A stretch of 55,968 nt of DNA. It comes from Minisyncoccota bacterium (GTDB taxonomy: Bacteria; Patescibacteriota; Minisyncoccia; Phycocordibacterales; CSBR16-193). The stretch spans positions 1 through 55,968 of the forward strand of contig JBBDHZ010000292.1 in the NCBI GenBank assembly GCA_040880645.1. Direction: 5' to 3'. The notes beneath the pieces were generated by a model. The model had not been told where the DNA came from, ran no database searches, and worked only from the letters and a program-made list of their open reading frames with translations. Of this stretch, positions 23,779 to 55,968 are shown piece after piece (within the stretch, counting starts at the first letter, position 1; every line of letters begins with the position of its first letter). Both the position numbers and the translations under genes were made by a program.

Positions 23779-23799
23779 AGGGAGACCGCTCTACTGGTT

Positions 23800-25802: not shown

Positions 25803-25837
25803 ATCGTTTGGTGTATTCTAGCACGGCGCAACCATCG

Positions 25838-26530
25838 TTAATCCCCAGATACCGCCGAGGCAGCCTTTCGGCGGGCCGCTCGTTTAATGTTCCCCCGCAG
25901 GCTTGCCTTGTGGGTGATCGAACGTATCAGATCGTTGTTTTCAAACACGCGCGTGAGGATCACGTTTATCGTGGCGGTGGGGAGTGCGGCCAAAAGCGGT
26001 ATATAGGCAAAGACAGCGGTCGCGATCCACATCACCAGCTTGCGGGTGGTCGGCACAACGCCGCTGAAGAAGTAATACGGGACGATCACAACCGTCAGTA
26101 TCACCGCCATCACCGGACTCAAGAGAGAAGAAACGACCGCAAGCGTGACCAAGATATCGGCGATATCTTTGAGGATCGCCAGCAGGAGTACCGACCAGAA
26201 TTTCCAGCCGGTGAGCTTCTTTTTAGACTTAGTGTTCGTCTGTGTCGCGGCCTTTTGCCCGGCTCGGCGAAGCCGCTGTATACGGCGGGTCTTTGCCCTC
26301 GCCCGGGTCAGGCCACGGCGGGTCGGGATGGTAACCGGTCGCGCAAAACCTCTCGATTCGGTTGAACGAGATTCCGCGGCGCGCGACTCCGGGTCGGGTT
26401 TCTTTGCTTTCCTTGAAGCGCCGGTTTCGTCGGCCTCGTTGCTCAGGCGAGGCCCCACGCCACCCGGCGCCACCGGGGCCGGTCCGGCTTTACCACGAGT
26501 GTCTCTGCTGTACGGGCGATCCTCGGCCAT
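25838..26530 (-). CDS. Hypothetical membrane protein of the secretion cluster
   Basis: Basic disordered N-terminus followed by several TM helices; abuts virB4. Confidence 0.7.
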   Translation of the reverse strand: MAEDRPYSRDTRGKAGPAPVAPGGVGPRLSNEADETGASRKAKKPDPESRAAESRSTESRGFARPVTIPTRRGLTRARAKTRRIQRLRRAGQKAATQTNTKSKKKLTGWKFWSVLLLAILKDIADILVTLAVVSSLLSPVMAVILTVVIVPYYFFSGVVPTTRKLVMWIATAVFAYIPLLAALPTATINVILTRVFENNDLIRSITHKASLRGNIKRAARRKAASAVSGD

Positions 26531-26531
26531 A

Positions 26532-28373
26532 CTAATTTATAGGTTCTTGTTCTTTGTTTGCCTCCTGATCATTAAACTCTTCTTTCGATTTCTTGATCGC
26601 CATCACCTCAGACGGATCCGAGGTGATGATCTGGTCCTCGGTGTAGCTGGCGATGACTTTGATTGCCACGTGTTTTAGGCCGGCAAAGAAGATGCCTTCC
26701 CCGACATCGGACTCCATTAGCAGGTATTTTTCTTCTTCGGTTAAATGAAAGATCTCTTGGAGTTTTTCCGCCCCGGACGGAGACTGTTTCATCAAAAACT
26801 GCATCGACGAGTTGGTGATGATCGGCAGGCCGTACGGTGATTTCAGGAAGTCGCCGACGTCCTGGGTGATCGTCGAAAGGCCGAGGTAGTACTTTCGTCC
26901 ACGCTTCGCCAGCCCCAACAGGAAGGACGCGGTGTCTTCTGATTTCATCATCCACCACGCCTCGTCGATGACCAGCAGACGTTTCTGGAGCCGGCGGCGG
27001 ATCGCGTTCCAGATATGGTGGGTCACGATATACATCGCGACCGACTTCAGCTCATCCTCCATATCTCTCAGCGAGAACACGACGAACTTTTGTTCGATGT
27101 CGACGTTCGTCGGCTGGTTCAAGAACCCGGCCCAGGTTCCTTCGGTGTACTTGGAGAGGCGCTGGGAGAGCGATTCCGCGCCCTGCATACCCGACAACAC
27201 CGTCTCGAAGTCCGACAGCAGCGGCGCCTCGACCTTGGTCAGATCGGCGTCCGGCGTAATGTCCTTCAGGGCGTACGTTTCCGTGATCGCCTTGTCGATA
27301 ATGGCGTCTTCTTCCGGGGTCAGACCACCCATCATAATACGGAACAGCCCGACCAAGTGAATAATGTTCGAGCGCAGGATGTTCGCGGTTGATTCGCCTT
27401 CGGTCGGCATCGGCAGGTCAAACGGATTAATGTGGTGCTGGGAAGTAAGCGAGATGTTAAAGTACCGCCCACCGACCGCCTCGGCCAGGTACTCGTACTC
27501 GCGCTCCGGGTCGAGCACGATCACCTCGGTGTCGAACATCAGCGACCGCAGGATCTCGAGTTTCGTCCCGTACGACTTTCCGGAACCCGATTTCGCCAGA
27601 GTCACCGAGTTATAGTTCTCAAGACTGTACCGGTCAAACAGGACCAAGCTCGAGTTGTGCCGGTTCACCCCGAAGAGAATACCGGAATCCGACGTGAGGT
27701 CGAACGACACAAACGGGAACAAACTGGAGAGCGGGGTCGAGTTCAGTTTTGAGTGCACCTCGAGCTCATCAGTTTCGATCGGTATAACGCTCCGGAATCC
27801 TTCAGCCTGCTGGAACAGCGCCGGTTTCACGTAGATCAGTTTTGCCTCAAGAATTGAGTGGATCTCGGACTCGACCTTATCGAGCTCCTCTTTGTCGTCG
27901 CCGTAGATGCTGATGTACAGCCCGACATCAAACAAACGCTCCTGGGCCTGCTGGAGTTTATCGCGCAGGTTTTCCAGGTCCTGGTACGCCGTATCGAGCT
28001 GGGGATCACGCACCAACCCCTTGTCTTCCCGCTCGTGGATCTGGCTCTGCACCTCGGCGACTTTGTTCTGAAACTTCTTGAGGATCTGGCTGGTTTCGAT
28101 CGGGTGAATAAAGATCGAAATATCAAACACTTTATCCAGATCGATCACCGGGGAAAACCAGCTCTCGGTCAGGTACCGCGGGTACGAGATGACAAACAGC
28201 GTTCGAATCATCTTGTCGCCGAGATGAAGTTCTTTCGGGGTTATCTTAAGCGCGCTCGGGGCGATGATGTCCTCGAGCTCGAGTGATTCCGCATCCATTA
28301 ACTGATGGGGGAGGATGAGATCTTCATCACGCACCGTGCTTTTTTTTGATTTTCCGAATCCAAGGATACTCAT
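26532..28373 (-). CDS. VirB4-like type IV secretion ATPase
   Basis: Walker A AKSGSGKS, LDPEREY, INPFDL, Walker B LLVIDEAW, RGRKY and ITQDV.DF. Confidence 0.92.
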   Translation of the reverse strand: MSILGFGKSKKSTVRDEDLILPHQLMDAESLELEDIIAPSALKITPKELHLGDKMIRTLFVISYPRYLTESWFSPVIDLDKVFDISIFIHPIETSQILKKFQNKVAEVQSQIHEREDKGLVRDPQLDTAYQDLENLRDKLQQAQERLFDVGLYISIYGDDKEELDKVESEIHSILEAKLIYVKPALFQQAEGFRSVIPIETDELEVHSKLNSTPLSSLFPFVSFDLTSDSGILFGVNRHNSSLVLFDRYSLENYNSVTLAKSGSGKSYGTKLEILRSLMFDTEVIVLDPEREYEYLAEAVGGRYFNISLTSQHHINPFDLPMPTEGESTANILRSNIIHLVGLFRIMMGGLTPEEDAIIDKAITETYALKDITPDADLTKVEAPLLSDFETVLSGMQGAESLSQRLSKYTEGTWAGFLNQPTNVDIEQKFVVFSLRDMEDELKSVAMYIVTHHIWNAIRRRLQKRLLVIDEAWWMMKSEDTASFLLGLAKRGRKYYLGLSTITQDVGDFLKSPYGLPIITNSSMQFLMKQSPSGAEKLQEIFHLTEEEKYLLMESDVGEGIFFAGLKHVAIKVIASYTEDQIITSDPSEVMAIKKSKEEFNDQEANKEQEPIN

Positions 28374-28402
28374 AGATCTGTATTGATACAACCACGACCA
28401 CC

Positions 28403-29068
28403 CTACTTTTCCTCCTCCGCACCGGTGGTGGGCAAATCGGTCTCCCCGGGATTAAAGGTCTGGTAAAACAGCTCGGTTATTTCGTCCGTTCCGAGACGAG
28501 CGGCCCGAACGCCGGTGCGGATCAGTCCCTGCTCCACCACCGACACCCGTGCTTCCAGCTGGCTTCGTTGCTGCTCGAACGACTGTTTATCCGCTTCTTT
28601 CTTCTCTTCGCTTGTCCCCCCTTTGCCGATCAGGCTCTTGAGCCCGCCGAGGATACCACCGCCGGAAGAAGTGCTCACCGTCGGCGTGTACGGCACGACG
28701 ACGTAAAAGTGTTTCGACATTATATTCGTTTTTGCCGTGAAGGTTTTGATGAACTCGATATATTCCTTGGTCTGAATTTTGAGCAGATCGTTGACCTGCT
28801 CCTTCTGGCGCTCTTCGAGCCGCTGAATGTACGGCCGAATGTCGAGCTCGCGTGACTGAATACAGATCTGTGTTGAAAAATCAAGCGAATTAAGAAAGTT
28901 CTGGAATTGATACAGCGTTGATTCCTGCTCCTCCTTTGACTTCAAACCGAAGTTGACCGTTGAGGTCATCAGGATCGCCCGCAGGGAACCGTTCTTCAGG
29001 ATCGCAACGTCGTCGCGAATTTCCTTGATCGGAATGAATTTTTGTGACGGGGTGCTTCGTGTTGCCAT
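28403..29068 (-). CDS. T4SS-associated protein between PrgI and VirB4
   Basis: VNFGLKS.EEQ...FLNSL pattern, similar to N-terminal segments of monoderm conjugative VirB4 systems; cluster position. Confidence 0.7.
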   Translation of the reverse strand: MATRSTPSQKFIPIKEIRDDVAILKNGSLRAILMTSTVNFGLKSKEEQESTLYQFQNFLNSLDFSTQICIQSRELDIRPYIQRLEERQKEQVNDLLKIQTKEYIEFIKTFTAKTNIMSKHFYVVVPYTPTVSTSSGGGILGGLKSLIGKGGTSEEKKEADKQSFEQQRSQLEARVSVVEQGLIRTGVRAARLGTDEITELFYQTFNPGETDLPTTGAEEEK

Positions 29069-29174
29069 AGTAAATACTGTCTCTAGTGTAGCATATCGGC
29101 GCTGTCAACAACGGCGCGGTCCGGCGCTCTGCAGCCTGCTCCTTCTTGCTGAATGCTACCGCGCATCAAAAACC

Positions 29175-29699
29175 CTACGAATCGCTCGGTCCGGTTTTTT
29201 CTGCCGCCGGCGCGGCCTGCGGTTCGTTCGCCTGCTCGTTCGTAAGGCCTCGCTGCTCCTCTTTTTCCAGCATCTCTCGCTCTTCGGTCCCGTTGCCGTC
29301 ACCGACATCGAGGTTCCAGGTCATACTCTTGAGCTTGCCCGCCCCGCCGAGACGCGGAACACCGGCGCGCACCTCTTTCTTTTCGGCCTCTTCCAGTGCT
29401 TTTTTGCTCGGTTTTTTTCGTCGCCGGTCCCAGATAAACAGCTTTGACCCGGTGGCGTAGTAGAACGCCGCCTCCAGAACCTCGATGAACGGCTTTTCGT
29501 TCACCTTGTAAAACGCCAGAGCTCCGGCAAGAAGCGCGACCGGAACAATGAGCACGATCGCGACCAGGCGGTACGGGACCAAAAACCACAGCGCGACCGA
29601 TCCGCCGACCCCGCCGGCAATGTAGATGAACTGCTTCAAGGTAAGCGGCCCGAACAGCTTGTTTTCTACCTCTATATATTGGGGGACGTGAAATCTCAT
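29175..29699 (-). CDS. PrgI-family (VirB3-like) protein
   Basis: F.VPQYIEVENKLFGPLTLKQF plus two TM helices. Confidence 0.88.
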   Translation of the reverse strand: MRFHVPQYIEVENKLFGPLTLKQFIYIAGGVGGSVALWFLVPYRLVAIVLIVPVALLAGALAFYKVNEKPFIEVLEAAFYYATGSKLFIWDRRRKKPSKKALEEAEKKEVRAGVPRLGGAGKLKSMTWNLDVGDGNGTEEREMLEKEEQRGLTNEQANEPQAAPAAEKTGPSDS

Positions 29700-29820
29700 A
29701 GTTTATGTACAGGTTTTAGTTTCCCGCTTCTACGAACGCACTTGCTTTTTGTGTACGCATTGTCGCTATTTCGGTTGTACACGGCACAACACGAGAGAGC
29801 GAGAGTCCGGCAGCGAGAAC

Positions 29821-30711
29821 CTAGCTGATCGGCTCGCGGTACGGATCCTCCACTTCCCCGTACCGTTCGTCCGGGTCGTTTGTCTCCGGCGAATCTTGCT
29901 CGATCTCACCGTCCGCGACAACATCGCGCGGACCGTGCTCCCCGTTGGGGTCTTCGATACCGGCCAGCACCTCGCCGCGCGAGAGATTGTGGTGGTCGTG
30001 ATCAGTCTCTTGAAACGAGTCAAACCCTTCGATCCGCTGGTTTGCACTTGAGGGTTTTTGCGGAACCGATCGGGCTGCGTTATCCGCGCCGCCCGCTACC
30101 GGCTCGTCATCGTCCCAGACACTGGGCGGTGTCGCGGGGGCCGGTGGCCGCTTTGCTTGCGGCCGCGGCGCCTGTGTTCGCGGCATCGCCCGTCCCCCAC
30201 GCTCCGAACCACCGAGAGAGCCTTCTTCGGCACCTCTCTCGGCGCCGGGTAGATCGCGCGGTGCAGGAGCAGAGCGCGCCCCGTCACTCTGGCGATCGCT
30301 CCCTCTTCGCGAGGACGAGAGCGCGTTGCGCGCGGCGTCCCGGGGAGACTCGGCCGCTCCGGATCTCCCGCCACGCCGGCCATCCGATGTATCCATCTCT
30401 TTGAGAAATGTGTTGGCCCGCGGATCGCGAAAGACGATCTCCCCTAAACTGCTCGCCAGCCGCGCGGCGATCTCCCCCGGAACTCCCGCCTCGCTTTCGA
30501 GCGACTTCGTGAATCGGGACATCGGACTCACCCCCATCAGGGTGTACATAGTCTGATCGACCACGTCGGTCAGTCGCTCTTCCGCGACACCGCTCGCGCG
30601 GGCAACCTGGCGTATCGTTGCCGGCGTATCCGGAGAAAGCACGACCGCCCGAACGCTCTCCGGGAGCGCTGAGACATACTCGGCGAGTTGTTGTTGTTCT
30701 TGATCTGCCAT
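29821..30711 (-). CDS. Hypothetical protein with a helical N-domain, disordered linker and C-terminal DPYREPI
   Basis: Co-oriented ORF within the secretion cluster. Confidence 0.75.
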   Translation of the reverse strand: MADQEQQQLAEYVSALPESVRAVVLSPDTPATIRQVARASGVAEERLTDVVDQTMYTLMGVSPMSRFTKSLESEAGVPGEIAARLASSLGEIVFRDPRANTFLKEMDTSDGRRGGRSGAAESPRDAARNALSSSRRGSDRQSDGARSAPAPRDLPGAERGAEEGSLGGSERGGRAMPRTQAPRPQAKRPPAPATPPSVWDDDEPVAGGADNAARSVPQKPSSANQRIEGFDSFQETDHDHHNLSRGEVLAGIEDPNGEHGPRDVVADGEIEQDSPETNDPDERYGEVEDPYREPIS

Positions 30712-30743
30712 TGCTCTGAATAATTACTCACGCTGCACTCACC

Positions 30744-33143
30744 CTAGGGTCCGCCACCTGTTCCACCACCGCTACCGGTCCCGCTTCCACCACTGCCTCC
30801 CGAAGGTCCGCCGGCGGGAGGGGTCGGCGGTTGCAACACACCTTCATTTTGAAGTGTTTTAAGGGCGTCTTCAACTCCCTTACTTTTTCCGAAGTTCTTT
30901 TTCAGGTCCTCGAGGTTCTTTCTCAGGTCCTGAAGTTCTTTGACTGCGTCCCGTTCTTCCTGTTCCGCGTCTTTTCTTATCCGGCGCGCCTGAGCATCCT
31001 GTTGTTCCGCCTGTTCTTTCCGTTGAGCCGCAGCTGTTCGATCCTGACGGGCCGCTGCCTTCTGTTGCGCATAGGAACGCTTTACATCACGAACCTGAGC
31101 CGCACGCGCACGCTGTACCGTCTGCGCTCGATCCCGCCGCACCTGCACCTCATCACGCTCTCGGCGCTTCTGCTGAAGCTCGGGGGTGTCGGCCACTGTT
31201 CCTGAAGCCAAGCTCTGTTCCTGCCCTTCCCGTTCCGCCTTTTTCTCTTCAAGCCGGCGCACTAACTCGGGGTCGGGGCCGGCCGGATTGCCACTCGCGT
31301 CGAGGACCCCTGAACGCTGTGATTCTTCTACCCGAGCTTCCAGCTCTTGCTCTTCGTTCTGTAACGCCTCGAGACGTTCCTGCATAGCGGTGCGCGACTG
31401 CTCCTCGAGATCACCGATCTCGGTGTCGACCTGAGCTATCTTTTGATCAAGCTCGGTGGCAAGGGTGCCGGCTCGATCCCTTCGTTCTTTTGTCGCGTCA
31501 ACCTCGGATCGCTGTTGGTCTCGAACGCCTTCATACCGACTCTGGCTCCTGTTTACATCGCCGTGCGCCCGGGCAATATCCGCTCCGGCAGCCCGTTCCT
31601 CCCGACGAGCGACGTTCTGATGGCCGCGCGCAAGGTTTGCCCGTTCTTGTTGGAATTCTTGTTTTCCTCTATTCTCGACCTGTGTATTTATATTTTCGAT
31701 CTTTCCTTTCCGTACCCCCTCTTCCTTCGCTGCGTCCACAGCGGATTTGCCGCCGCCGTACTTGGCCTTGGCCATTTTTTGGGTGGTAAAGCTTCGGAGC
31801 GTCGTCCCGATTCGGGAATTTCCGAGCCGTGAATCGTTTAATTTCTCCTCAGCTTTCCGGCCGAGCCGACCGATCGTGCTTCGGCCCGCAAGCCCTCCCA
31901 CACCGCGGAGCGGTCGCGAGAAAGTGCTGTTCGCCACCTTTCCTCCGATCGATCCGGTCAGTTTGGAAGAGAGAAGTATCGATCCGACAAGAAAGGCGAT
32001 GACAACGATAAAGTTTAACATCAGGATAACCATCGCCCCTCCTCCCGCGGCAACCCCGCTGATAAACCCGCCCGAGGCCTCAGAGCGAAGCGTGGTAAAA
32101 GCCGGACTGGCGACGATCTTTATGACCAAAAGCAGCATCAGGAAAAAGGCCGGAGCAAAGAAGGAGTGTTTGATCAAGGCCCCGAGCCATTTCTGTCCCT
32201 GGCCGGCGGTCTGCGGGAGGATGAACGCCGCCAAGGCCAGCGGTGAGACGATCATAAGGAACACAAGCGCCACGAAACGCAAGATAAGGAGCAGAGCGGC
32301 GGTAAGAAGCACGAAAGCCGCGATGATCATCACGGCCGATCCGGCGATCATCACAATCAATCTCGTAAAGACACTGCTCACGGCGCCGGCGAGGTGATCA
32401 CCGGCGGTGGGTTGTGTGTTGGCGTCGCCCGGCGAGTACACCTCGATGACCATCAGCGTGTCGGCGAAGATGTTAGAGATACAGCTATCGGCCTGGTTCG
32501 TGGTCGTGTCACAGCCCGAGACGTTGGGGTTGGCCGCCGCCTCGTCGCTGATGGCCTGGTGCAACTCTACCGCCAGAAAGTTGCTGAAATCAATGACCAC
32601 CTGGGTGAAAAAGAGGCTGAAGTTGATCAAGAGAGCGACGAGAATGAGATTGCGCAACAAGCCTTTGGCCTGGTTGTCGCCGCTGTTGAACATAAACTTG
32701 ATCCCGATATAGAGCAGAACAAAAATAAACCCTATGTTCGCCAGGTCCCGGAACATAGTCCAACCGGCGCTCACGACGTCTATCGCCTCAACAAAATGCT
32801 TCATATTGAGAACAACGAGCACAACGGTGCCGTTCAACAACACCCCGGCCAGCCATAAGAACCAGGACGTGATCCACAGGACGACATTGGAGAGGAAAAT
32901 AGCAGCCTTCTCTTGCGCCTTAGCCACTTCAGCGGCAATGATGTTACCCGCAACCCTACCGCCAACAGTCGCGCTCGCTTTTATGATTTGTAAAGCAAGT
33001 TCCAGATTTGACAAGCCATCCGCTTCAACCGTCTGAACCGAAACCCCCTCGGTCGGATCGACCGCAACCGGCGCGAAAACACCGATCCCGATAAGTGATA
33101 CCAGGACTCCGCCCAGAAGGAATTTTCTCAGGAATAACGGCAT
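30744..33143 (-). CDS. VirB6/TrbL-like polytopic membrane protein with a long C-terminal coiled coil
   Basis: GW..FRDLANI.FI, LI.VALLINFSLF, R...L.FL.I.SPLA....ILP......W; E/Q/R-rich tail. Confidence 0.8.
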   Translation of the reverse strand: MPLFLRKFLLGGVLVSLIGIGVFAPVAVDPTEGVSVQTVEADGLSNLELALQIIKASATVGGRVAGNIIAAEVAKAQEKAAIFLSNVVLWITSWFLWLAGVLLNGTVVLVVLNMKHFVEAIDVVSAGWTMFRDLANIGFIFVLLYIGIKFMFNSGDNQAKGLLRNLILVALLINFSLFFTQVVIDFSNFLAVELHQAISDEAAANPNVSGCDTTTNQADSCISNIFADTLMVIEVYSPGDANTQPTAGDHLAGAVSSVFTRLIVMIAGSAVMIIAAFVLLTAALLLILRFVALVFLMIVSPLALAAFILPQTAGQGQKWLGALIKHSFFAPAFFLMLLLVIKIVASPAFTTLRSEASGGFISGVAAGGGAMVILMLNFIVVIAFLVGSILLSSKLTGSIGGKVANSTFSRPLRGVGGLAGRSTIGRLGRKAEEKLNDSRLGNSRIGTTLRSFTTQKMAKAKYGGGKSAVDAAKEEGVRKGKIENINTQVENRGKQEFQQERANLARGHQNVARREERAAGADIARAHGDVNRSQSRYEGVRDQQRSEVDATKERRDRAGTLATELDQKIAQVDTEIGDLEEQSRTAMQERLEALQNEEQELEARVEESQRSGVLDASGNPAGPDPELVRRLEEKKAEREGQEQSLASGTVADTPELQQKRRERDEVQVRRDRAQTVQRARAAQVRDVKRSYAQQKAAARQDRTAAAQRKEQAEQQDAQARRIRKDAEQEERDAVKELQDLRKNLEDLKKNFGKSKGVEDALKTLQNEGVLQPPTPPAGGPSGGSGGSGTGSGGGTGGGP

Positions 33144-33155
33144 AGCGTAGAGCTA

Positions 33156-34391
33156 CTAGAAGAAGTTTGCGATTATGCTGTTGATGATGTTCTTTGCGAC
33201 ATCCATCGCGGCGTCCTCGAGCATATCGACCATATTGTCGAAGTACTCCTGAAGATTGATATCAAACAGATCGTTGATGAACGAATCAAAAGTGTCGAGG
33301 AAATCCTCTTCCAAGACCCCGCCGGTCTTCATGTCCTCTTCGATCTGGTCACACGCGGCAACCAGGTCGGCCACCACACTCTCCGCCCCGACCGACGATC
33401 CGTGCTCACCGATCTGGGTGAGCGCGTCGTCACAGAAACCGACCGCCCGGCTGAGTTTCTCCCGATTAATGTTTCCCGGAGTAATAGTTCGCTGGCCGAC
33501 GATTTCTCCGGTATCGGGGTTTTCAATAACCTCAACGTTGCCGTGATACCCCTGGTTCCAGTCAAGCTTGAGCCGCTCGGTCTCGAGCGCCGCGGCGGTC
33601 CGGCGATTCAGTGCTTCTTGAGCCTTATCGAACGCGCCGTACGGGTTGTTGTCCGGCACCTGCGTCATCGCAAACCATGAATTCCAGCCGCCCTGGCTGA
33701 AGTCACCGCCGTAAAACGCCTCTGAGTTTTGGGCGCTCCCGGTCACGTCATCGAAGGTGTAGTTGCGGTCGTAGTACGTACTGTCAAACGACGGGTTCGA
33801 CCGGCGGAGCCCTTCGGCGACCGCGTCCGAGTACGGCTCCGGCCCGGTGTCCGATGAGCCGGCGCTACCACACACGGAGAAGCCATACGACTTCTCCATA
33901 AAGCGATTGAACTCGCTTTCCGCTACTTCCTGGAAGTAGAGATCCGGCTGGTCCTCGGCGTACGGTGACTGCGTCGGACCGTTGCAGTCCGACAGATAGC
34001 GATTATCGAGGTACCCGGAAAAGCCCTTCTGGATGTCGGTCAGTGTTTCTTTGTTTTTCTCGACAAGTGCCGCCTTTGCCTCGCCTTCGTCTTCCGGGTC
34101 ACGGCGGACCTCTTTCTCGACCAGTTCACTGAGCAGGCCCACCAGCTCTTCGAGCGCGCGCACGCTTTCTGAATTAACCTGAATGTTGGCCTCGTCAACG
34201 ACCGGTACGTTCTGGTTGCCAACGACCCCGAACACGGTCGGAGCAACAGTGAAAAAACTAAGAGCAAGCGAGCCGGCAAGAAGTGCGCCCCCTAAAAATC
34301 TCGGTGAGAAGCGCCCCGCTTTCCGCTTTCCTCCGTGCCCACTTTCTTGCCCATCTTCTTGCCGGTGAATCGTGTGTGTAAATAGTGCCAT
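33156..34391 (-). CDS. Exported acidic protein of the secretion cluster
   Basis: Signal/TM segment, VPV.D, GDFSQGGWNSW...PDNNPYG and ITPG motifs. Confidence 0.75.
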   Translation of the reverse strand: MALFTHTIHRQEDGQESGHGGKRKAGRFSPRFLGGALLAGSLALSFFTVAPTVFGVVGNQNVPVVDEANIQVNSESVRALEELVGLLSELVEKEVRRDPEDEGEAKAALVEKNKETLTDIQKGFSGYLDNRYLSDCNGPTQSPYAEDQPDLYFQEVAESEFNRFMEKSYGFSVCGSAGSSDTGPEPYSDAVAEGLRRSNPSFDSTYYDRNYTFDDVTGSAQNSEAFYGGDFSQGGWNSWFAMTQVPDNNPYGAFDKAQEALNRRTAAALETERLKLDWNQGYHGNVEVIENPDTGEIVGQRTITPGNINREKLSRAVGFCDDALTQIGEHGSSVGAESVVADLVAACDQIEEDMKTGGVLEEDFLDTFDSFINDLFDINLQEYFDNMVDMLEDAAMDVAKNIINSIIANFF

Positions 34392-34469
34392 CGTGTGCCT
34401 TGTTAGATTAGTAACCGCCACCTCTGTTCGTTCTACGTTAGTATATCGCAGTTTCGGACACCGCCGAGA

Positions 34470-41942: not shown

Positions 41943-43043
41943 GTGACACACCGAAGTATCAGCTCATTGAGTAAAATCGCTGTGGCGGCGGCACTCATCG
42001 GGAGTTTTGGTGTTGGCGCGGTTCCCCGCTCGGTTGAGGCGGGGTTCTTTTCGTTTATCCGGGGGATGCAGGAGAAACGAGAGACAAAACCGAACTCATC
42101 CAGTAACTCATTTACCGCCATTGACCGCCCGAACAGCCAAACAATGAACCTGCTTCAGGCCCCTCGAAATGTTAACCCGGGAAGCATCGCCCAGGGTGGC
42201 GGTGATATTTTCATCATCGGAAACGAAGCGCTCTCCCCGGGAAGCCGCTCTGACGGCCCTGATCGAGACGATGTGAGTGATGATAGAGGACGTATTCGTG
42301 AGTATGTGGTGCGTGAAGGTGACTCGCTCTCTCGGATCGCCGAGATGTTTGATGTATCGGTCAACACAATCCGCTGGAGCAACGATATCGGCGCGAACGG
42401 CAACATCAGGATCGGTCAGAAGCTGATCATTCTTCCGATCACCGGTATTCAGTACGTTGTCGAGAGCGGCGACTCCCTCAGCACGATCGCCGAGGAGTTT
42501 GGAGGGGATGTGGACGAAATACGCGAATTTAACCGCCTGAATGACGACGATGTGCTGCTTATCGGGGACGAGGTGATCATTCCGAACGGCGAGATCAAGC
42601 AATCACCACAGCGATCAGGTACTCCAAGCGCTCCCGCCCCGCGCGCACCACGAACCAATCCGGCACCAAGCAGTGGATACTACGCCCACCCCGCTCCGGG
42701 CGCGATCGTGACCCAGCGAACGCACGGTTATAACGGTATTGACTTTGGAGCCGGATACGGCACCCCGATCGTAGCCTCTGCCCGGGGAACGGTTATAATC
42801 TCCCGCACTGGCTGGAACGGCGGGTACGGAACGTATGTTGTTATCGATCACGCAAACGGTACCCAGACCCTCTACGCCCACAACTCACAAAACACTGTAT
42901 CGGTCGGCCAAAGTGTTGAACAAGGTCAGGTTATTGCGTATATGGGCTCAACTGGACGCTCTACCGGAAATCACGTTCACTTCGAAGTTCGCGGAGCAAC
43001 GAACCCGTTTGCCTCGTGCGGCCTGAGAACACAGTGTCGCTAA
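41943..43043 (+). CDS. LysM-LysM-M23 peptidoglycan endopeptidase
   Basis: Two LysM repeats (YVVREGDSLS.IA); M23 motifs H.YNGID, YAH and GRSTGNHVHFEV. Confidence 0.92.
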   Translation: MTHRSISSLSKIAVAAALIGSFGVGAVPRSVEAGFFSFIRGMQEKRETKPNSSSNSFTAIDRPNSQTMNLLQAPRNVNPGSIAQGGGDIFIIGNEALSPGSRSDGPDRDDVSDDRGRIREYVVREGDSLSRIAEMFDVSVNTIRWSNDIGANGNIRIGQKLIILPITGIQYVVESGDSLSTIAEEFGGDVDEIREFNRLNDDDVLLIGDEVIIPNGEIKQSPQRSGTPSAPAPRAPRTNPAPSSGYYAHPAPGAIVTQRTHGYNGIDFGAGYGTPIVASARGTVIISRTGWNGGYGTYVVIDHANGTQTLYAHNSQNTVSVGQSVEQGQVIAYMGSTGRSTGNHVHFEVRGATNPFASCGLRTQCR

Positions 43044-43099
43044 CCCGCCCACAAAACACGCCACTCCTGCGAGTCATCCCGCTTCAACGCGGTTTTTTG

Positions 43100-43546
43100 T
43101 TATCACGTGACACAGTAGCTCTTTAAAATATCTTAAAACACGGTTATTTTGTTTAATAAACCACACCTTCCCGCTCTCAAAATACCGGACACGCATTGTA
43201 TGTATCAAAAGTATTTGATCACTTTCTCACCTAATCGTTCTCTATTCCATTCCCGGACCGGTGTTTGCGAATCCGGTAGATCACTCTCCCCAGACACCGT
43301 TCTTTGTATAGATGTTTTTAAATGAGCTCTATTATAGCTGTGGGTATGTGTAGAAGAACACTCCTACACCTTTGTTGAGCTGGTAAATAAAGATTTGATG
43401 GTGGGGATACCGATAGGAAGTTACGGGAATAGTGGGTATAACTTTTAGAAATAGAGCGCACTATCCCCGTTTTACTCTCTTCTCTCCCTCTATTATCCCC
43501 TCGAAATAAACATACAGTACCCACTTCTTCCCCGGAGTTATCCCCG
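43100..43546. other. Candidate replication origin (oriC)
   Basis: About 500-bp AT-rich non-coding gap with ~7 degenerate DnaA boxes; apparent switch from C-rich to G-rich top strand. Confidence 0.6.
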
Positions 43547-45079
43547 TTACACGGTTTGCGGGCGGTACGTGATCGCCTCATATATGTGCTCCGGCAGAAC
43601 ATCCCTACTCTCTTCCAGGTCGGCGATGGTTCGGGCTACCCGGGCGACTTTGTAGAATCCACGAGCAGAAAGATCGTAGTGTTGGGCGGTCTCGGTAAGG
43701 AGTGTGTGAGAATCGGGGTTGAAATGACCGTGTTCGATGATCTCTCGCGAGGAAAGCTCTTTATTCACCGTTGTGGCAAGACCGTGCTGTTCTGCCCGTT
43801 CGTGCATACACTCACGGGCCCGGGCAACCCGTTCTCGCAGAGTAGCGGTGCTTTCCGACGGAGTTGAGTAGTCACTGAGGCGAGAGTGGTCAACTTCGGC
43901 AACCGTGAGCCAGATATCGATCCGATCAACGATCGGTCCGGAGAGTTTTTGTTGGTAACGGGCGAGTTGATGAGCGCTGCAGCGGCAGATCTTTCCTTCG
44001 GTCCCGTAATTACCGCACGGACACGGATTCATTGCGGCAACCAAGAGGAAATTAGCCGGAAATGTGGCGTGTCCGGCGGTCCGGGCTACGGTTATTGAGC
44101 GGTTCTCGAGTGGCTGGCGCAGGGATTCAACAACTCGCCGGTCAAATTCCGGAAATTCATCGAGAAACAAAACACCGTGGTGCGCGAGCGTGATCTCGCC
44201 CGGCTTCGGCAGGGCGCCGCCGCCGATGAGTGCCGTGTACGAAGAGGTGTGATGGGGTGAACGAAACGGCCGCTCGCGTATGATCGGCTCGTCCGAGAGC
44301 TCTCCGGCAACGGAATGAATAGCGGTTATCTCCAGAGATTCCTCGAAGGTCGGCTGAGGAAGAAGCGAGCGAAAGGCTTGGGCCAGCATCGTTTTGCCGG
44401 TGCCGGGCGGCCCGCTCATCGCTACGTTGTGTCCGCCCGCCGCGGCAATCTCTAAACCGCGCTTTGCGGACTCCTGCCCGCGCACCTCGGCCATATCAAG
44501 CGACGGTACGGGAGAAGGGTTGACCGCTGTTTGGGGGGCCTCTTCAGGGCTTCGGGTCAGCTCGCCCGTGATCAGAGAAACAAGCTCGGTGAGGTTGGCG
44601 ACGCCGTACACATCTATACCACTCACCAGCGCGGCTTCTGCCGCGTTCTCACGGGGGACATAGAGTGTTGTGAAGCCGTGATCCCGGGCGTACGTAGCCA
44701 GTGACAGTGCCCCGGCGATCGGGCGGGTGCTTCCGTCAAGCGAGAGCTCGCCGGCGATACAGGCGGTGTCGGTGTCTGCCTCAAGTGTCTCGATCGCGGT
44801 TAGATACGCGACCGCGATCGCGCAGTCAAATACCGAGCCCTCCTTTTTGCTGTGGGCCGGGGCAAGCGAGACGATTACTTTGTGATTTTGTTGTTTTGGT
44901 GAAGGGTAGCCGCTGTTTTTTAAGGCGGCGGACACACGGTCGCGGGCCTCTTCAACCGCTTTATCCGGCAGTCCCACGATCGAGAACGCGTACAACCCTT
45001 GGGTAATATCCACTTCGATACGAACCGGTTGTGCTTCAAGAAGGCGTACTTGGGCGCTGTGGATTCGGGCAACATTCAT
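43547..45079 (-). CDS. comM: YifB/ComM Mg-chelatase-like AAA+ ATPase
   Basis: IVGLPDKAVEEARDRV, GPPGTGKTMLA, RPFRSPHHT, GVLFLDEFPEF and AAMNPCPCG. Confidence 0.93.
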   Translation of the reverse strand: MNVARIHSAQVRLLEAQPVRIEVDITQGLYAFSIVGLPDKAVEEARDRVSAALKNSGYPSPKQQNHKVIVSLAPAHSKKEGSVFDCAIAVAYLTAIETLEADTDTACIAGELSLDGSTRPIAGALSLATYARDHGFTTLYVPRENAAEAALVSGIDVYGVANLTELVSLITGELTRSPEEAPQTAVNPSPVPSLDMAEVRGQESAKRGLEIAAAGGHNVAMSGPPGTGKTMLAQAFRSLLPQPTFEESLEITAIHSVAGELSDEPIIRERPFRSPHHTSSYTALIGGGALPKPGEITLAHHGVLFLDEFPEFDRRVVESLRQPLENRSITVARTAGHATFPANFLLVAAMNPCPCGNYGTEGKICRCSAHQLARYQQKLSGPIVDRIDIWLTVAEVDHSRLSDYSTPSESTATLRERVARARECMHERAEQHGLATTVNKELSSREIIEHGHFNPDSHTLLTETAQHYDLSARGFYKVARVARTIADLEESRDVLPEHIYEAITYRPQTV

Positions 45080-51762: not shown

Positions 51763-52123
51763 TTGCGCAATATAGCACAAGTGTATAGGCTTTGCAAGTG
51801 CCGCGGGGCCCTGTGGATGACGTGCAAGTGAGGTGTTTGAGAGAGTCAAGAAACACCTCTACGGTACAGCGGTGCTTCTCAGAGGCGTTTGGGGCCGGCG
51901 GAATCGGGTAGATTCGAGTTTGAAACAGGCAAGGAAGAGAAAAACGGAAGAAACAAGCGCGGAGCACAAGCGTAAACGGCACGGCGAAACGACCCCCAAA
52001 CCTTGACTTTTACTTTCATTTATAGTAGCGTAGCGCCAGAACGAATGTTCGTTTGTTCGTTGACGTTGCTAGGTTGCCACGTCAGCTTTTTTGTTTGGGC
52101 ATCTCTTGAAAGGAGACACGGTT

Positions 52124-53302
52124 ATGTGCAAAAACGAAAGGAAAGAAGAGACTCGGAGTGATCAGAAGGAGGCTCAGGAGGCTCGAAGTGATCCGTCGGC
52201 CGGGCAGATGTCCCGGACGGATTGGATGTGCATCGGCGCATTTATCCTTATCGCGGTGTTCCTGACCCTGGTTGGTGTTGCGATTAAGGATGCCATGACG
52301 GCAACGCGTAACGGCCAGGCCACAAATGAGGTTCTGGATCTGACTCGAAAGGAGCTCGGGTCAATCCATGAGGATCTCAGTTCCACGTTGCAGACCGCAA
52401 CGGAGGAATCCCGCGACCTGGCTCAACAGGAGTTTGAGTCGATCCGCAATGAGGTCCGAGCTGCGCTTCCGGCCACAAGGGCCGACGTTGAGGCGCAACG
52501 CCGGAAGATCGAGGGGCTCAGGGAGATTCTTGAGCGCCACGAGTACGTGGTCGAATTCGACACCGCTGAAGGGTCGCGGAACTTCTCTCGTAAGCGTGCG
52601 GCGCATCTCAGAGGTTCGATCGCCGCGGCGGAGGAGAGGCTCGCTGGGCTGGAGGCTCGAGTGGATTCCACGCCGGAATTACTTGAGAGAATCAGCCAGA
52701 TCGAAGAGAGCGGCGCGGCGACGCGAGCCCAGATCACGGAGCTCACAGAGCTCGTGAAAGGTGTTGCGGAAGGACAGAAAGGGACGAGTGAGTCCCTGGA
52801 AACCCTCCGTGGGGAGCTAGGTCTGCACGCAGATCAGCTGAATCAGATCCGCAAGGAGCTTAAAACACCGGCGCCCAAGGAAACGCCCGAACCTGCGCCT
52901 CAACAAGGAGCGCAGTCATCGACAACAGAAGCCGTCGGTTCGACAGCTCAACGTTCGGCGAGTGAGGTGGAGGAGCCTCACATGAGGGTGGTCAAGTACT
53001 ACTTCGAAAACGGTCGGAGTCAGCCGGTCAACATCGAGACCGTGCGCTTCAATCGTGAAAAAGATCGATTCGCGTACGGACATCTCAACGGTGATCGGTG
53101 GGTGTGGGTAGGGATGCCCTATCTGCACACCGCGGACGGTCCTCGGTACATGAACTGGGGCGAGTATGACCGCGGTCGTTTTCCCGGTCACACGTTTGCC
53201 TATGACTGGATCAATAAGGTCTGGTGGCACGTCGATGATCGGAGTAACTGGCATCGGTCTCAGACAGTGAAGTTCAAAACTCTTGAGGAGGCTAAGCAAT
53301 GA
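52124..53302 (+). CDS. Membrane-anchored coiled-coil protein with an aromatic-rich C-terminal domain
   Basis: AAAGGAG RBS, one TM, a long coiled coil, P-rich linker and W/Y-rich C-domain. Confidence 0.8.
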   Translation: MCKNERKEETRSDQKEAQEARSDPSAGQMSRTDWMCIGAFILIAVFLTLVGVAIKDAMTATRNGQATNEVLDLTRKELGSIHEDLSSTLQTATEESRDLAQQEFESIRNEVRAALPATRADVEAQRRKIEGLREILERHEYVVEFDTAEGSRNFSRKRAAHLRGSIAAAEERLAGLEARVDSTPELLERISQIEESGAATRAQITELTELVKGVAEGQKGTSESLETLRGELGLHADQLNQIRKELKTPAPKETPEPAPQQGAQSSTTEAVGSTAQRSASEVEEPHMRVVKYYFENGRSQPVNIETVRFNREKDRFAYGHLNGDRWVWVGMPYLHTADGPRYMNWGEYDRGRFPGHTFAYDWINKVWWHVDDRSNWHRSQTVKFKTLEEAKQ

Positions 53303-54396
53303 GGCGGACTACGAAAACCATGTTGGCAATACTTTTTCTGGTTCTTGGTGGTTGTGGATCAACCGCCTGGGTCAACGAGGCATCGATGTCTCGGCGGGAC
53401 GGGTCTCACCTTTCCGTCGAGGCGGCCGGCGCCGGCGACAGTGAGCATCGGTTCGGCTTTGCCCGGATGGTTCAGTGGGACCAAGACGGGGTTGAGTACA
53501 ACTTCGAAACCGGAGAGGTAAAGGAGGTCTGGAAGGATACGACGACCGAGTTCGTCTCGCGCGACGGTCAAGGCCCTCGAGCTCAGGTGGTGGCTGCGTT
53601 TACCGCCTTGGCTGATCGAGGTATGGCCGAAGCGGGTAGTGTCCTCTACGCCAGAGAAAAGGCGAAGCGAGGGCCGCTGTCTGTCACAAAGGTCGGCGAC
53701 AGGAACGAGACGCAAAATCTAAGCTTTCAGACAAGCTCAACAGCGTCTCCCGCCCAAATGCAGGGTGGCCAGAAGGCAACAAACGATTCGAGCGCCGGTG
53801 TGGCCGCTGACCTCTATGCTGGTGGCGGTACGGCCCTACAAAAGCAAGACCAGACGAGCGAAGGGTCACACGCCGGAGCAACGGCAGGGTCTGAATCTGG
53901 AGTTGGTGACGTATCCGCTCGATCCGACGCCGATCAGAGTCAAGGCCAGGATCAGCGGGCCACAAGCGAAGGGTCGAATCCTGACATCGCTGTAACGGCG
54001 GACGGACGTGTCAAAGTCGGTGATATTTCCAACCGGCAGGATCAGGAGCAGGGCCAAGACCAGGAATCGGTCAATGATGCCAAGGCCGACGGACGGGCCG
54101 TGCTCCAAGACGTCGCTATTCGAGGCGGTGATCAACATCAGGACCAGGGCCTGGAATCGACGAATGTCAGCGAAGGCTCCAGCGCCACCGCAGAGGCTGA
54201 TGTTGACACTGACGCTAGTGTCGGCGACGTTTCTAACCGACAGGATCAGGATCAGCGGGCCACAAGCGAAGGCTCTGACGCCAGTGCTGAGTCGCGTGCC
54301 GAAGCTGAGAACAGGAACGAGAGTTCCAATCAAAACAGTGCTGAAGGAACCGGCACAGGATCGGCTTCCTCAGGTGCTGAATCAACAAGCAACTGA
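53299..54396 (+). CDS. Lipoprotein with Q/S/D/A-rich imperfect repeats
   Basis: GAGGAGG RBS, ATGA overlap with the upstream gene, lipobox LGGC and repeats VGD(V/I)S..QDQ...SEGS. Confidence 0.82.
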   Translation: MRRTTKTMLAILFLVLGGCGSTAWVNEASMSRRDGSHLSVEAAGAGDSEHRFGFARMVQWDQDGVEYNFETGEVKEVWKDTTTEFVSRDGQGPRAQVVAAFTALADRGMAEAGSVLYAREKAKRGPLSVTKVGDRNETQNLSFQTSSTASPAQMQGGQKATNDSSAGVAADLYAGGGTALQKQDQTSEGSHAGATAGSESGVGDVSARSDADQSQGQDQRATSEGSNPDIAVTADGRVKVGDISNRQDQEQGQDQESVNDAKADGRAVLQDVAIRGGDQHQDQGLESTNVSEGSSATAEADVDTDASVGDVSNRQDQDQRATSEGSDASAESRAEAENRNESSNQNSAEGTGTGSASSGAESTSN

Positions 54397-54431
54397 CAAC
54401 AAACACATGAAGAAGGAAGGAGTTCTATCCC

Positions 54432-54464
54432 CCGCCGCGAGTCTTATACTCGCGGCGGTTTTTT
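54432..54464 (+). terminator. Intrinsic terminator
   Basis: CCGCCGCGAGT-CTTAT-ACTCGCGGCGG-TTTTTT. Confidence 0.85.
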
Positions 54465-54507
54465 ATTTCAAAATAGGACAAAATCACAGGTTGTAGTAAA
54501 GGACAAG

Positions 54508-54555
54508 TTATCCACAGGTTATGTCTTTTACAAATGTAAAAGACATTAGTATACT
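54508..54555 (+). promoter_or_regulatory. Sigma70-like promoter with an operator-like palindrome and an upstream consensus DnaA box
   Basis: TTATCCACA 54508-54516; ATGTCTTTTACA-AA-TGTAAAAGACAT 54521-54546; TTTACA-17 bp-TATACT (54550-54555). Confidence 0.65.
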
Positions 54556-54561
54556 AGGTTC

Positions 54562-54953
54562 AGTCCCAGCACACAGAAAATCAAAGAGACAAAACAAGGT
54601 GCTGAGATGTTCTTTTGTTCGTTGACAATTCACTCGCCTGACTAAAACGCACGCGAAACTGCGCGCTGCCTAGAACGGCAAAAACTGATCTCAGGAAATC
54701 GCTGCCGTCCCACGACAGCATTCCCCCCGGATCAGTTTCATATCGAAACCCCCCGATGTTCTTTCCACAAATAACGTGTGCCCCTCTCCAAAGTAAAGCA
54801 AAGAGGTTCCCTGAGCACAGATGATTTTGGGTTGCGGAACGAGCTCCTAACGGCCTCATTTACTGTGATCGCTGGAAGCTGGTTCCGCAACCTGAAACGT
54901 TGCGTGCACCTGGTCCTCAAAAGCCCCTGCCTCTCCACGGCCGGGGCTTTTTT
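54562..54953 (+). ncRNA. Candidate orphan structured RNA (~390 nt)
   Basis: Promoter, multibranch fold with G-U pairs on the + strand, terminator at 54919-54953 and no credible ORF. Confidence 0.55.
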
Positions 54954-54960
54954 ATATCGA

Positions 54961-54993
54961 TTAAGCGGCTCACAGGGTACGTGAGCCGCTTAA
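54961..54993. repeat. 13-bp inverted repeat hairpin
   Basis: TTAAGCGGCTCAC-AGGGTAC-GTGAGCCGCTTAA. Confidence 0.7.
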
Positions 54994-55110
54994 AGAGAGG
55001 AAAAACTCTTGTGTATAGCCCTATTTCTGCTATTGTCCAACGCAATCGGAGCATTTCTCCGGCAGTATTCGGTTGCGTCGGTGTTTTAGACGCAGGATAC
55101 TTTTCCGGTC

Positions 55111-55826
55111 TGTTTCACGTGTAACCATAAATACGCCTAAAACGTGCATTTTTGAACTGTTGTGTGCGAGGAGATGTTCTAGTCGCGCAACTCAAAAAGG
55201 TTACACGTGAAACAAAACACAGAAAACAGCCAGGTTACACGTGTAACCTGGCTGTTTTTCTCTGTTTGGGGTGAAAATGTTACACGTGAAACAGTACTCG
55301 AGGTGTTTCACGTGTAACAGGCTACTTTACCCAGTATTTCTTACGAATCTCCTCAAGCACCTTCTCATCTTCTTCCTCAAGCTTCTCTTTCCCCTTTTCT
55401 CCGAGCTTCTTAAGATCTTCCTCGGTCAGTTCCAGAAGGCCCTTGGCACGTTCTGTTAGGTGCTCTTTCGTGTTGCGCGACGGATCATCGAGAACTTCTT
55501 CCAGCAGGGCGTGGAGGATGTAGCCAATTTTGGGGCCCGGCTGCATCCCAAGCTCGCTCATCAGCGTGTTTCCGTCTAGGGCAAGGCTTTTTACCGATAC
55601 CGGGTCGCGCATCGCTTCTTCGATCATCGATTGATACTTGCGGAGTCGGTAGGGGCGCTCCTTGGGTCGTCCTGTTCCGATGCGGTCGCAGATACGCAGG
55701 TTCACGATCTCCTCGATATTCTCCTTGCCGATATGACTAACCAGCCGCCTGACCGCGGAAAGGGTGATTTGTTCGGGATCGGAGAAGAACATATGCCAGC
55801 GGACCAGCGTTGTTACACGTGAAACA
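55111..55826. promoter_or_regulatory. Cluster of six parS-like (ParB/Spo0J-binding) sites
   Basis: (T/G)GTT(T/A)CACGTG(A/T)AAC(A/C) at 55111, 55199, 55233, 55278, 55304 and 55811; matches TGTTNCACGTGAAACA. Confidence 0.85.
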
Positions 55827-55968
55827 AACTCCTTTGAAAAACACAGCCGTTCGAGGGTCTTCTTGGTTATCTTCGCCCCCACAACCTCGTGGCCGTGGAA
55901 ACTCCAGTCGTTCTTCTTGTGGTCCATTCGCTTGGTGGCCGGCTTGCCGATATCATGAAAAAGCGCAG
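55322..55968 (-). CDS. CCA tRNA nucleotidyltransferase / HD-domain protein, C-terminal part (5' end outside the window)
   Basis: FHDIGKPAT...FHGHEVVGA, LVRWHMF, DRIG and LALDGN.LM...PGPKIG.IL. Confidence 0.85.
   Translation of the reverse strand, partial: ALFHDIGKPATKRMDHKKNDWSFHGHEVVGAKITKKTLERLCFSKEFVSRVTTLVRWHMFFSDPEQITLSAVRRLVSHIGKENIEEIVNLRICDRIGTGRPKERPYRLRKYQSMIEEAMRDPVSVKSLALDGNTLMSELGMQPGPKIGYILHALLEEVLDDPSRNTKEHLTERAKGLLELTEEDLKKLGEKGKEKLEEEDEKVLEEIRKKYWVK

Follow-up and report, generated by a model that had tools for sequence, protein, structure and literature searches.

A putative stand-alone boxA-bearing RNA gene and its promoter module in one order of Parcubacteria/Paceibacteria

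The probable RNA gene and its control region

The DNA analyzed here (the window) is the complete contig JBBDHZ010000292.1, 55,968 nucleotides long, of assembly GCA_040880645.1 from a Minisyncoccota bacterium (2.1 Mb in 292 contigs, 69% complete). Positions 54562-54953 of its plus strand very probably constitute a non-coding RNA gene, as judged from the sequence features described below. Relatives are referred to by labels for genomes (G) and loci (L), where G001 is a relative of the same genus and G101 a complete genome. An earlier note, made from the letters of the window alone, had described the gene as a unit running from promoter to terminator with no credible open reading frame (ORF), and both descriptions held. 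The promoter, TTTACA-17-TATACT (54527-54555), matches the consensus hexamers at 10 of 12 positions, and the start of the predicted transcript was placed 7 nt past the -10 hexamer TATACT (54550-54555, plus strand). The end was placed at the T run of a terminator consisting of an interrupted 12-bp hairpin followed by T6 (~54920-54953, plus strand), which was found in the minimum free energy (MFE) fold as well as in a dedicated terminator scan and was not listed by a simpler scan. The ORFs in between are all 92 amino acids or shorter and overlap on both strands, and the indels relative to the homologue in G001 measure 1, 2, 4 and 8 nt, which excludes coding.

The region directly upstream of the start is densely occupied. 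It begins with an operator-like box TAAAGGACA (54497-54505), the inverted partner of the TGTCYTTTA boxes, and continues with TTATCCACA (54508-54516, plus strand), a perfect match to what we take to be the DnaA-box consensus, located at around -54 to -46 from the inferred start and the sole perfect copy on the 56-kb contig. Then follows the operator repeat TGTCTTTTACA (54522-54532, plus strand), which includes the -35 hexamer TTTACA (54527-54532). An extra operator-like copy, AAAAGACA, lies within the promoter spacer (54538-54545), and the equivalent site in most relatives reads TGTCYTTTATA or AAAGGACA.

Within the predicted transcript a 5' hairpin CAGCAC/GUGCUG (54567-54604, plus strand), placed like a boxB-like stem, precedes a tandem boxA-like segment (54606-54632, plus strand) composed of GAUGUUCUUUUG and then GUUCGUUGACAAUUCA, the latter spanning 54617-54632. 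The heptamer GUUCUUU is found at 54609 and again at 54758, as part of a second boxA-like motif, GAUGUUCUUUCCACA (54755-54769, plus strand), that is identical in G001. The interval 54636-54759 (plus strand) holds a structured core that is kept within the genus, with a predicted three-way helix arrangement including an AAACUGAUCU/GGAUCAGUUU arm. Further downstream, the C-rich segment GUGUGCCCCUCUCC(A)AAGUAAAGCAAAGA (54776-54804, plus strand) is kept in G001 except for one 1-nt gap, and its GUGUGC part is able to pair with 54569-54574. A 16-bp arm (54825-54897, plus strand) is specific to the window and has no second copy in the assembly; at its position G001 has a different, shorter hairpin.

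A promoter block and terminator conserved across the order

To describe the occurrence of the control region, genomes were scanned with the pattern TTATCCACA-N1-6-TGTCYTTTA, using the reversed pattern as a control. Of 201 genomes sampled from the order, 72 have the pattern, with few exceptions in one copy each (as in the window's own assembly), and the control yielded 0 hits. Outside the order it was found in none of ~295 genomes of other orders and classes in the phylum. The elements of the block are TAAAGGACA, the DnaA-box-like TTATCCACA and then TGTCCTTTACA as the -35. The consensus of 35 aligned units, (TATAAAGGACA) AAG TTATCCACA GG TA TGTCCTTTACA TGTCTTTTATA ... TATAAT, implies that the -35 sits inside one operator-like repeat; a second such repeat occupies the spacer, and an inverted copy and the DnaA-box word lie just upstream. 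In BLAST comparisons with seven genomes of other genera only the promoter matched, over the initial 33-56 nt of the query.

A terminator-like hairpin with T run was found 3' of the block in 33 of the 35 units. In 29 of these it lies 190-440 nt from the block, so that the RNAs would measure ~135-390 nt. The gene for the CCA-adding enzyme (cca) is convergent within 1.5 kb in 29 of the 35 units, and in ten of them the terminator lies 4-57 nt from its stop codon. The distance between unit and dnaA amounts to 29-41 kb in 13 of the 15 genomes that have both on one contig (34 kb in the window). What is conserved across the order is therefore the promoter block, the 5' hairpin with boxA-like motif, the terminator and the convergent cca, and not the body of the RNA.

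Some relatives deviate in copy number or arrangement. A second copy of the block at L038 (G042:C20) drives a type IV pilin-like ORF and not a non-coding RNA, G003 has two tandem units and G102 two divergent copies of the promoter block. The words of the block also recur elsewhere: clusters of TGTCCTTTA(TA)/TAAAGGACA boxes, often with TTATCCACA nearby, are present 5' of leuS, ftsK and cca/UPF0102 in relatives (L283, L284, L285, L286, L287, L288, L290 and L291). They look like the regulon, of small size, of a putative DNA-binding factor. The word TTATCCACA itself occurs 13-21 times per genome of 0.6-0.8 Mb, against 1-11 occurrences of the reversed control (G001, G101, G038, G071 and G132). One of the copies in G038 is located ~78 nt upstream of the transfer-messenger RNA (tmRNA) gene.

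The boxA-like leader motif

Apart from the terminator words, wide sharing inside the RNAs is confined to GTTCTTT and the words around it. On the sense strand G[TC]TCTTT was found in 24 of the 35 units (35 hits in 9160 nt). The antisense strand gave 2 hits and the flanking DNA 26 in 68604 nt, so that the motif is enriched about tenfold, and this on the sense strand only. The shorter word GTTCT gave a similar picture, with 5.1 copies per kb on the sense strand, 0.98 on the antisense strand and 0.93 in the flanks; at least one copy is present in 29 of the 35 units, at least two in 13 and at least three in 4. The motif is usually located 10-100 nt from the inferred start, after the hairpin, a layout seen in most, not all, relatives.

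A related element precedes the 16S rRNA genes of the lineage. The leaders of 31 genomes of the order contain G-N-A/T-C-U-U-U-G-A-M-A-A at -87 to -369, mostly at -90 to -280. The tail UUGACAAUUCA in the window is identical to the boxA of the 16S leader at L297, the sequence GUCCUUUGA occurs both in the RNA and in the 16S leader of G001, and the same holds for GUUCUUUGAAAA in G003. In G101 the 16S leader runs from a -10 TATACT via a hairpin to GTTCTTTGAAAT (the motif is also given as GUUCUUUGAAAU). We considered whether the boxA variant co-varies between RNA and 16S leader within a genome and rejected the idea: the agreement was suggestive in G001, G003 and G016 and absent in G034, G074, G081 and G101. 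The rRNA genes of G101 (L423) are unlinked, with 23S-5S ~9 kb from 16S on the same strand, and a match to a group II intron domain adjoins the 16S gene; several 16S genes of the order are interrupted.

Published boxA sequences are similar. The consensus for gamma-proteobacteria is given as GYTCTTTAANA (PMC5725501), and the boxA of B. subtilis as AUGAUCUUUGAAA, positioned directly after a small 5' hairpin (PMC13753749). The layout and the likeness in sequence to both the 16S leaders and the published elements thus fit an rRNA operon (rrn)-type boxB/boxA leader: a boxA near the 5' end that resembles the rRNA boxA of the lineage, with a hairpin just upstream. In one respect the locus departs from such a leader, as no rRNA follows; the terminator at 54920-54953 intervenes and the next gene is convergent. 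We file the gene as a putative boxA-bearing non-coding transcript.

The earlier note had suggested co-regulation with the operon upstream. This two-gene operon (52091-54396), without Pfam match, ends in its own intrinsic terminator (54432-54468, plus strand; 11-bp stem with 9 G-C pairs, then a T run), which separates the two units. Nevertheless, the leader of the operon (52003-52090) bears GAAUGUUCGUUUGUUCGUUGAC (52045-52064, plus strand), which agrees with the boxA-like segment of the RNA in 19 of 20 nt, and it is possible that RNA and operon share a mode of handling.

Conserved and lineage-specific parts of the predicted fold

The plus strand folds with -134.8 kcal/mol (z -5.14), a value reached by 0 of 100 shuffles, so that the shuffling check proposed in the earlier note came out clearly in favour of structure. 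The minus strand scores almost as well (z -4.95), and energy alone therefore does not choose the strand. For the RNA bodies of relatives the mean z relative to shuffles was -2.2, with 16 of 29 below -2.

The homologue in G001 shows 72% identity over 54500-54807, and the 5' 245 nt of the RNA are shared. When this part was analyzed with RNAalifold on the two sequences, 45 of 45 pairs were kept, with 4 double (compensatory) changes and 0 broken pairs. Another 11 pairs were changed on one side, every one giving G-U. Among the 90 pair cells there are 15 with G-U, a pair that would turn into A-C on the opposite strand, and the plus strand must therefore be the RNA strand, in agreement with the earlier argument from wobble pairs. 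In a shuffle control 35 of 500 sets reached the observed values; since the comparison involves two sequences and the structure itself came from these, the modelled pair conservation is suggestive and not statistical.

In the note the RNA had been presented as one large multibranched fold. All the complementary words that it named are present in the sequence, and two of the proposed elements gained from the comparison. The 5' hairpin reads CAGCAC/GUGCUG in the window and CUCAGCG/CGCUGAG in G001, with one double change from A-U to G-C (by eye), and the long arm AAACUGAUCU/GGAUCAGUUU, which together with the inner stem counts 14+2+3 pairs, shows 1 compensatory change and 6 changes to G-U. The AUAUCG/CGAUGU hairpin is kept in G001 as well, but is invariant and hence uninformative. 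Other elements failed. Neither the MFE fold nor the centroid fold contains the 'closing helix' (54649/54900). G001 has no counterpart of the 3' strand of this helix, and the 5' strand pairs locally instead, in a hairpin with 2 compensatory changes. TGCC/GGCA is broken in G001, where an alternative, GCC..CUA/UAG..GGC, is kept, and two elements are specific to the window, namely UGUGC..CCUCU/AGAGG..GCACA and the 16-bp arm (54825-54897). Thus, a structured, non-coding RNA remains, but not a single self-contained fold, as sharing within the genus is limited to the 5' 245 nt.

None of 32 loci from other genera in the order was matched by a covariance model built on the core shared in the genus; beyond the two training sequences, the model gave two hits with E 0.68 and E 3. 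DNA contigs from a single study (three runs) showed the window's sequence, a G001-like relative and a third variant; the alignment does not include these contigs. The third variant retains the 5' hairpin by means of a 2-nt deletion and changed partner bases. An exact 16-mer of the core was searched in genome and metagenome contigs and, among the matches listed, only unrelated organisms appeared; a BLAST comparison of the RNA with the matching loci gave one 24-nt chance match only. For structure-first discovery this holds a caution, since the fold of a single sequence proved mostly lineage-specific and the informative conservation resided in the promoter and a short motif.

Comparison with known RNA families and Nus partners

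The window was scanned with the 4227 models of Rfam 15 at gathering thresholds, and 54380-55340 in addition at permissive E-values. At gathering threshold the only match in the whole window was a tRNA-Lys at 2484, with none at the locus and no rRNA. The permissive scan remained at chance level (best E 0.038, on the parS palindrome described below), and across 20 homologous loci one chance match was obtained (E 0.066). The literature on RNAs of Patescibacteria, Parcubacteria and the Candidate Phyla Radiation and on boxA yielded no account of this RNA. The earlier claim of a previously undescribed RNA therefore stands as far as these searches reached: the gene is new to Rfam and, within the literature searched, undescribed.

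The note had also seen no hallmarks of RNase P RNA, tmRNA or signal recognition particle (SRP) RNA, and neither did we find any at the locus. RNase P RNA (bacterial type A, RF00010), of which a genome normally has one copy, has no match at 54562-54953 and is encoded on another contig of the window's assembly (101.5 bits), and away from the locus in 8 of 8 relatives. The gene for tmRNA (RF00023), an RNA with tRNA-like ends and a tag reading frame, is located elsewhere in 5 of 5 relatives, and ARAGORN detected none in the window. SRP RNA (RF00169, RF01854) was found in 0 of 5 genomes (G001, G101, G038, G071 and G132), as was the M domain of Ffh. In four of these genomes no SRP-type GTPase was found, and the fifth gave a weak, P-loop-level match to the SRP54 family. 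Among 60 genomes of the phylum compared with this GTPase family 30 gave weak matches, all at or below ~26 bits, and 30 gave none, and in the complete genome G101 there is no ORF bearing DT[AS]GR. As the SRP proteins were not found either, SRP RNA is not to be expected; either the SRP pathway is truly absent, or the searches were unable to see it.

Regarding the factors that could read a boxA, NusB was recovered from 20 of 20 relatives, and in each of them the match lies within an open frame of 297-335 amino acids. In G001 (L439:1118-2065) it is a 315-residue NusB-NUDIX fusion directly upstream of RNase III. With its NUDIX domain attached to a protein that reads boxA, such a fusion could process RNAs bearing this motif at their 5' ends.

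Neighbouring features

Between the RNA gene and the end of the window lie a perfect 13-bp palindromic hairpin (54961-54993) and five palindromes GTTWCACGTGWAAC (55112-55318; a sixth at 55812), which we take to be parS-like. The 3' part of cca (55322-55968, minus strand) is convergent to the RNA gene and is cut by the contig end. The locus itself was considered as replication origin and ruled out, as it has one perfect DnaA-box word only. A better candidate is located at 43043-43547: there, 8 DnaA-box-like words (at most 2 mismatches) occur in 600 nt where 1.27 are expected, together with repeats of TTATCCCC/GGGGATA. This region coincides with the GC-skew minimum at 42-44 kb and lies 23 kb from dnaA, which is without a box cluster upstream. 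A minus-strand cluster at 22486-34421, comprising a TraG-like P-loop protein, a type IV secretion system pilin and many ORFs without Pfam match, may represent an integrated module for conjugation or secretion, situated between yidC and the origin region.

A proposed stand-alone rrn-leader-like RNA

We favour, with a probability of roughly 40%, the explanation that this is a stand-alone rrn-leader-like RNA gene of one order of Parcubacteria/Paceibacteria, loaded with NusB/S10 and regulated through a DnaA-box/operator promoter. A sigma-70-type promoter inside the control block, in which the DnaA-box word stands between inverted and direct TGTCYTTTA/TAAAGGACA boxes overlapping the -35 and the spacer, would drive a transcript of 135-390 nt. 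Its start would be like that of an rRNA operon leader, with the 5' hairpin followed by one to three (A)UGUUCUUUG boxA-like motifs, and its end would be set by the intrinsic terminator, often abutting the stop codon of the convergent cca. NusB (the NusB-NUDIX fusion in G001) and S10 would bind the boxA motifs on the nascent RNA, as on the 16S leader, and the RNA would thus be made by a Nus-modified polymerase and carry NusB/S10. The body would be a fast-evolving set of hairpins, and the RNA would act via protein binding, that is, by titration or delivery of NusB/S10. DnaA and an operator-binding (TGTCYTTTA) factor would set its output. The anatomy of the gene, its pattern of conservation, the enrichment of the motif and the strand are observed, and transcription, Nus-factor binding, control by DnaA and the titration role are inferred.

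In a bolder form, the RNA would represent a new class of regulatory RNA, an 'orphan rRNA leader' whose boxA decoys capture NusB-NUDIX/S10 and whose expression is set by DnaA and the operator protein, so that ribosome production is coupled to the replication state in bacteria with tiny genomes and without Rho. This extension we regard as unlikely.

A number of observations weigh against the favoured explanation. The exact promoter pattern is lacking in 129 of the 201 genomes of the order, and the exact boxA core is missing from 11 of the 35 units. Among the 16S leaders the exact G[TC]TCTTT occurs in only 3 of 31, and in G101 the 9-mer GYTCTTTGA is found genome-wide as often as its reversed control (26 vs 26), so that the boxA argument rests on position and strand. 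In the same genome similar leaders, with hairpin and boxA, precede two protein-coding genes, and they were seen before a secreted-protein gene (479.9 kb) and before a long leader (161.7 kb); considering such leaders before some protein-coding genes, the motif is not specific to this RNA. Binding of DnaA at the promoter is assumed, and the genomic copies of TTATCCACA are dispersed, not clustered. The window's own assembly, which is 69% complete, yielded no NusB. The RNA-binding domain of Rho was found in 0 of 21 genomes (G000-G020), and thus the textbook purpose of boxA, the blocking of Rho, cannot apply. The other known roles of the Nus complex are to speed up elongation, to assist RNA folding and to interfere with intrinsic termination. 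Finally, one to three motifs are few for a sponge RNA.

Alternative explanations

The RNA could be a trans-acting small RNA (sRNA), comparable to those of the RsaE/RoxS type, in which C-rich stretches pair with the ribosome-binding sites of target mRNAs. In the present RNA the unpaired C-rich stretches would be UUCCCCCCGG, the loop AAACCCCC and GCCCCUCUCC, and their targets would be purine-rich ribosome-binding sites. All three stretches are kept in G001, GCCCCUCUCC being nearly invariant, two of the three are unpaired in the predicted folds, and several relatives have UUCCCAC after the boxA-like motif. Nevertheless, such stretches are not general among the 35 units, in which the commonest 7-mers are boxA-like and terminator words; moreover, no sRNA family of Rfam matches and 390 nt is long for an RNA with a C-rich seed. 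We consider this explanation unlikely, though not far-fetched.

The convergent position of cca leads to another explanation, in which the unit acts in cis: a Nus-modified polymerase would partly pass the terminator and proceed antisense into parS and cca, thereby tuning cca expression or ParB loading, and the RNA body would matter little. The proximity of cca in 29 of the 35 units, with the terminator next to its stop codon in ten, and the poor conservation of the body agree with this, as does the reported interference of the rrn antitermination complex with intrinsic termination (PMC13753749). Against it stand the strong terminators kept in 33 of the 35 units, the absence of parS from many loci, and bodies that are structured beyond chance and conserved within the genus with compensatory changes. 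In addition, synteny extends over the whole region between dnaA and the locus (29-41 kb in 13 of 15 genomes), and the adjacency of cca may therefore be merely inherited gene order. On balance this explanation is rather unlikely.

It could also be that the conserved entity is DNA, namely a DnaA-box/operator control site near the replication origin of which the transcript is a by-product. The promoter block is indeed far better conserved than the transcript. In addition, the locus is origin-proximal, at 11 kb from the skew minimum and the DnaA-box-like cluster of the window, it lies within the skew valley of the complete genome G101, and parS sites adjoin. However, the block has a single DnaA-box word and no box cluster, the 35 aligned units combine near-consensus -35 and -10 hexamers with subsequent sense-specific motifs and a terminator, and the G-U pattern and the compensatory changes indicate selection on the plus-strand RNA. 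This makes a pure DNA site distinctly improbable.

6S RNA folds into a rod with a large central bubble. A functional equivalent, mimicking an open promoter and binding RNA polymerase, would fill a vacant niche, as the 6S model (RF00013) gave no match in any of five near-complete genomes of the order, and the gene is stand-alone, single-copy and preceded by a strong promoter. Yet RF00013 does not match the locus up to E 10 or the 20 homologous loci up to 0.5. The MFE and centroid folds of the window's RNA and 28 relatives are predicted to be multibranched or to consist of a 5' hairpin and separate hairpins, without a 6S-like rod and bubble, and the lengths vary between 135 and 390 nt. We deem this explanation very unlikely. 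A highly divergent RNase P RNA, tmRNA or SRP RNA, for which the size (close to the first two) and the undetected SRP RNA in five genomes would speak, is refuted as far as the tools used reach, given the RNase P RNA and tmRNA genes located elsewhere, the negative ARAGORN result and the SRP proteins that were not found either.

Relation to known systems and implications

The rrn-leader-like RNA shares with true rRNA operon leaders a strong promoter, a short hairpin at the 5' end and then, inside the initial 10-100 nt, a boxA-like sequence that resembles both the boxA of the lineage's 16S leaders and the published E. coli and B. subtilis consensus. It differs in that neither rRNA nor another gene follows and an intrinsic terminator ends the transcript after 135-390 nt, in that the motif is often repeated, and in the DnaA-box/operator block, which is missing from the 16S promoters examined. 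Outside rRNA, boxA has been described in the leader of suhB and in those of CRISPR arrays, including long untranslated transcripts (PMC5725501, PMC13753749). In such transcripts it serves a downstream gene or array, with or against Rho, whereas the present RNA has nothing downstream and none of 21 genomes yielded Rho.

Sponge RNAs of the CsrB/RsmZ kind sequester a protein through many copies of a GGA motif in an otherwise variable body and are recognisable mainly by promoter and motif. The same traits are seen in the RNA described here, which has a control site conserved upstream, a short motif that is repeated, a variable and poorly conserved body and a terminator, but the motif is boxA-like and not GGA, and its copies are few (at least two GTTCT in 13 and at least three in 4 of the 35 units). 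With 6S RNA it has in common that it is a stand-alone, single-copy, housekeeping-type RNA gene, without the predicted rod-and-bubble fold or a model match. OLE, GOLLD, ROOL and raiA are, like this RNA, sizeable structured RNAs of uncultured or unusual bacteria; none of them matches, and their cores are conserved across wide taxa whereas the body here is conserved within the genus only.

The significance of the finding lies in the order-wide module of promoter, boxA and terminator, and not in the large fold that was proposed at first. Regulation in Parcubacteria, which are uncultured and have very small genomes, is almost unknown, and the module offers three handles: a single-copy promoter/operator block, specific to the order, that could serve as bait for the protein binding it, a stand-alone RNA that resembles an rRNA leader with nothing behind it, and a NusB-NUDIX fusion that possibly acts on boxA-bearing RNAs. 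Should the RNA not bind Nus factors, it would still be a new RNA gene outside Rfam. Should it bind them, boxA would extend from a 'signal before a gene' to a free-standing RNA.

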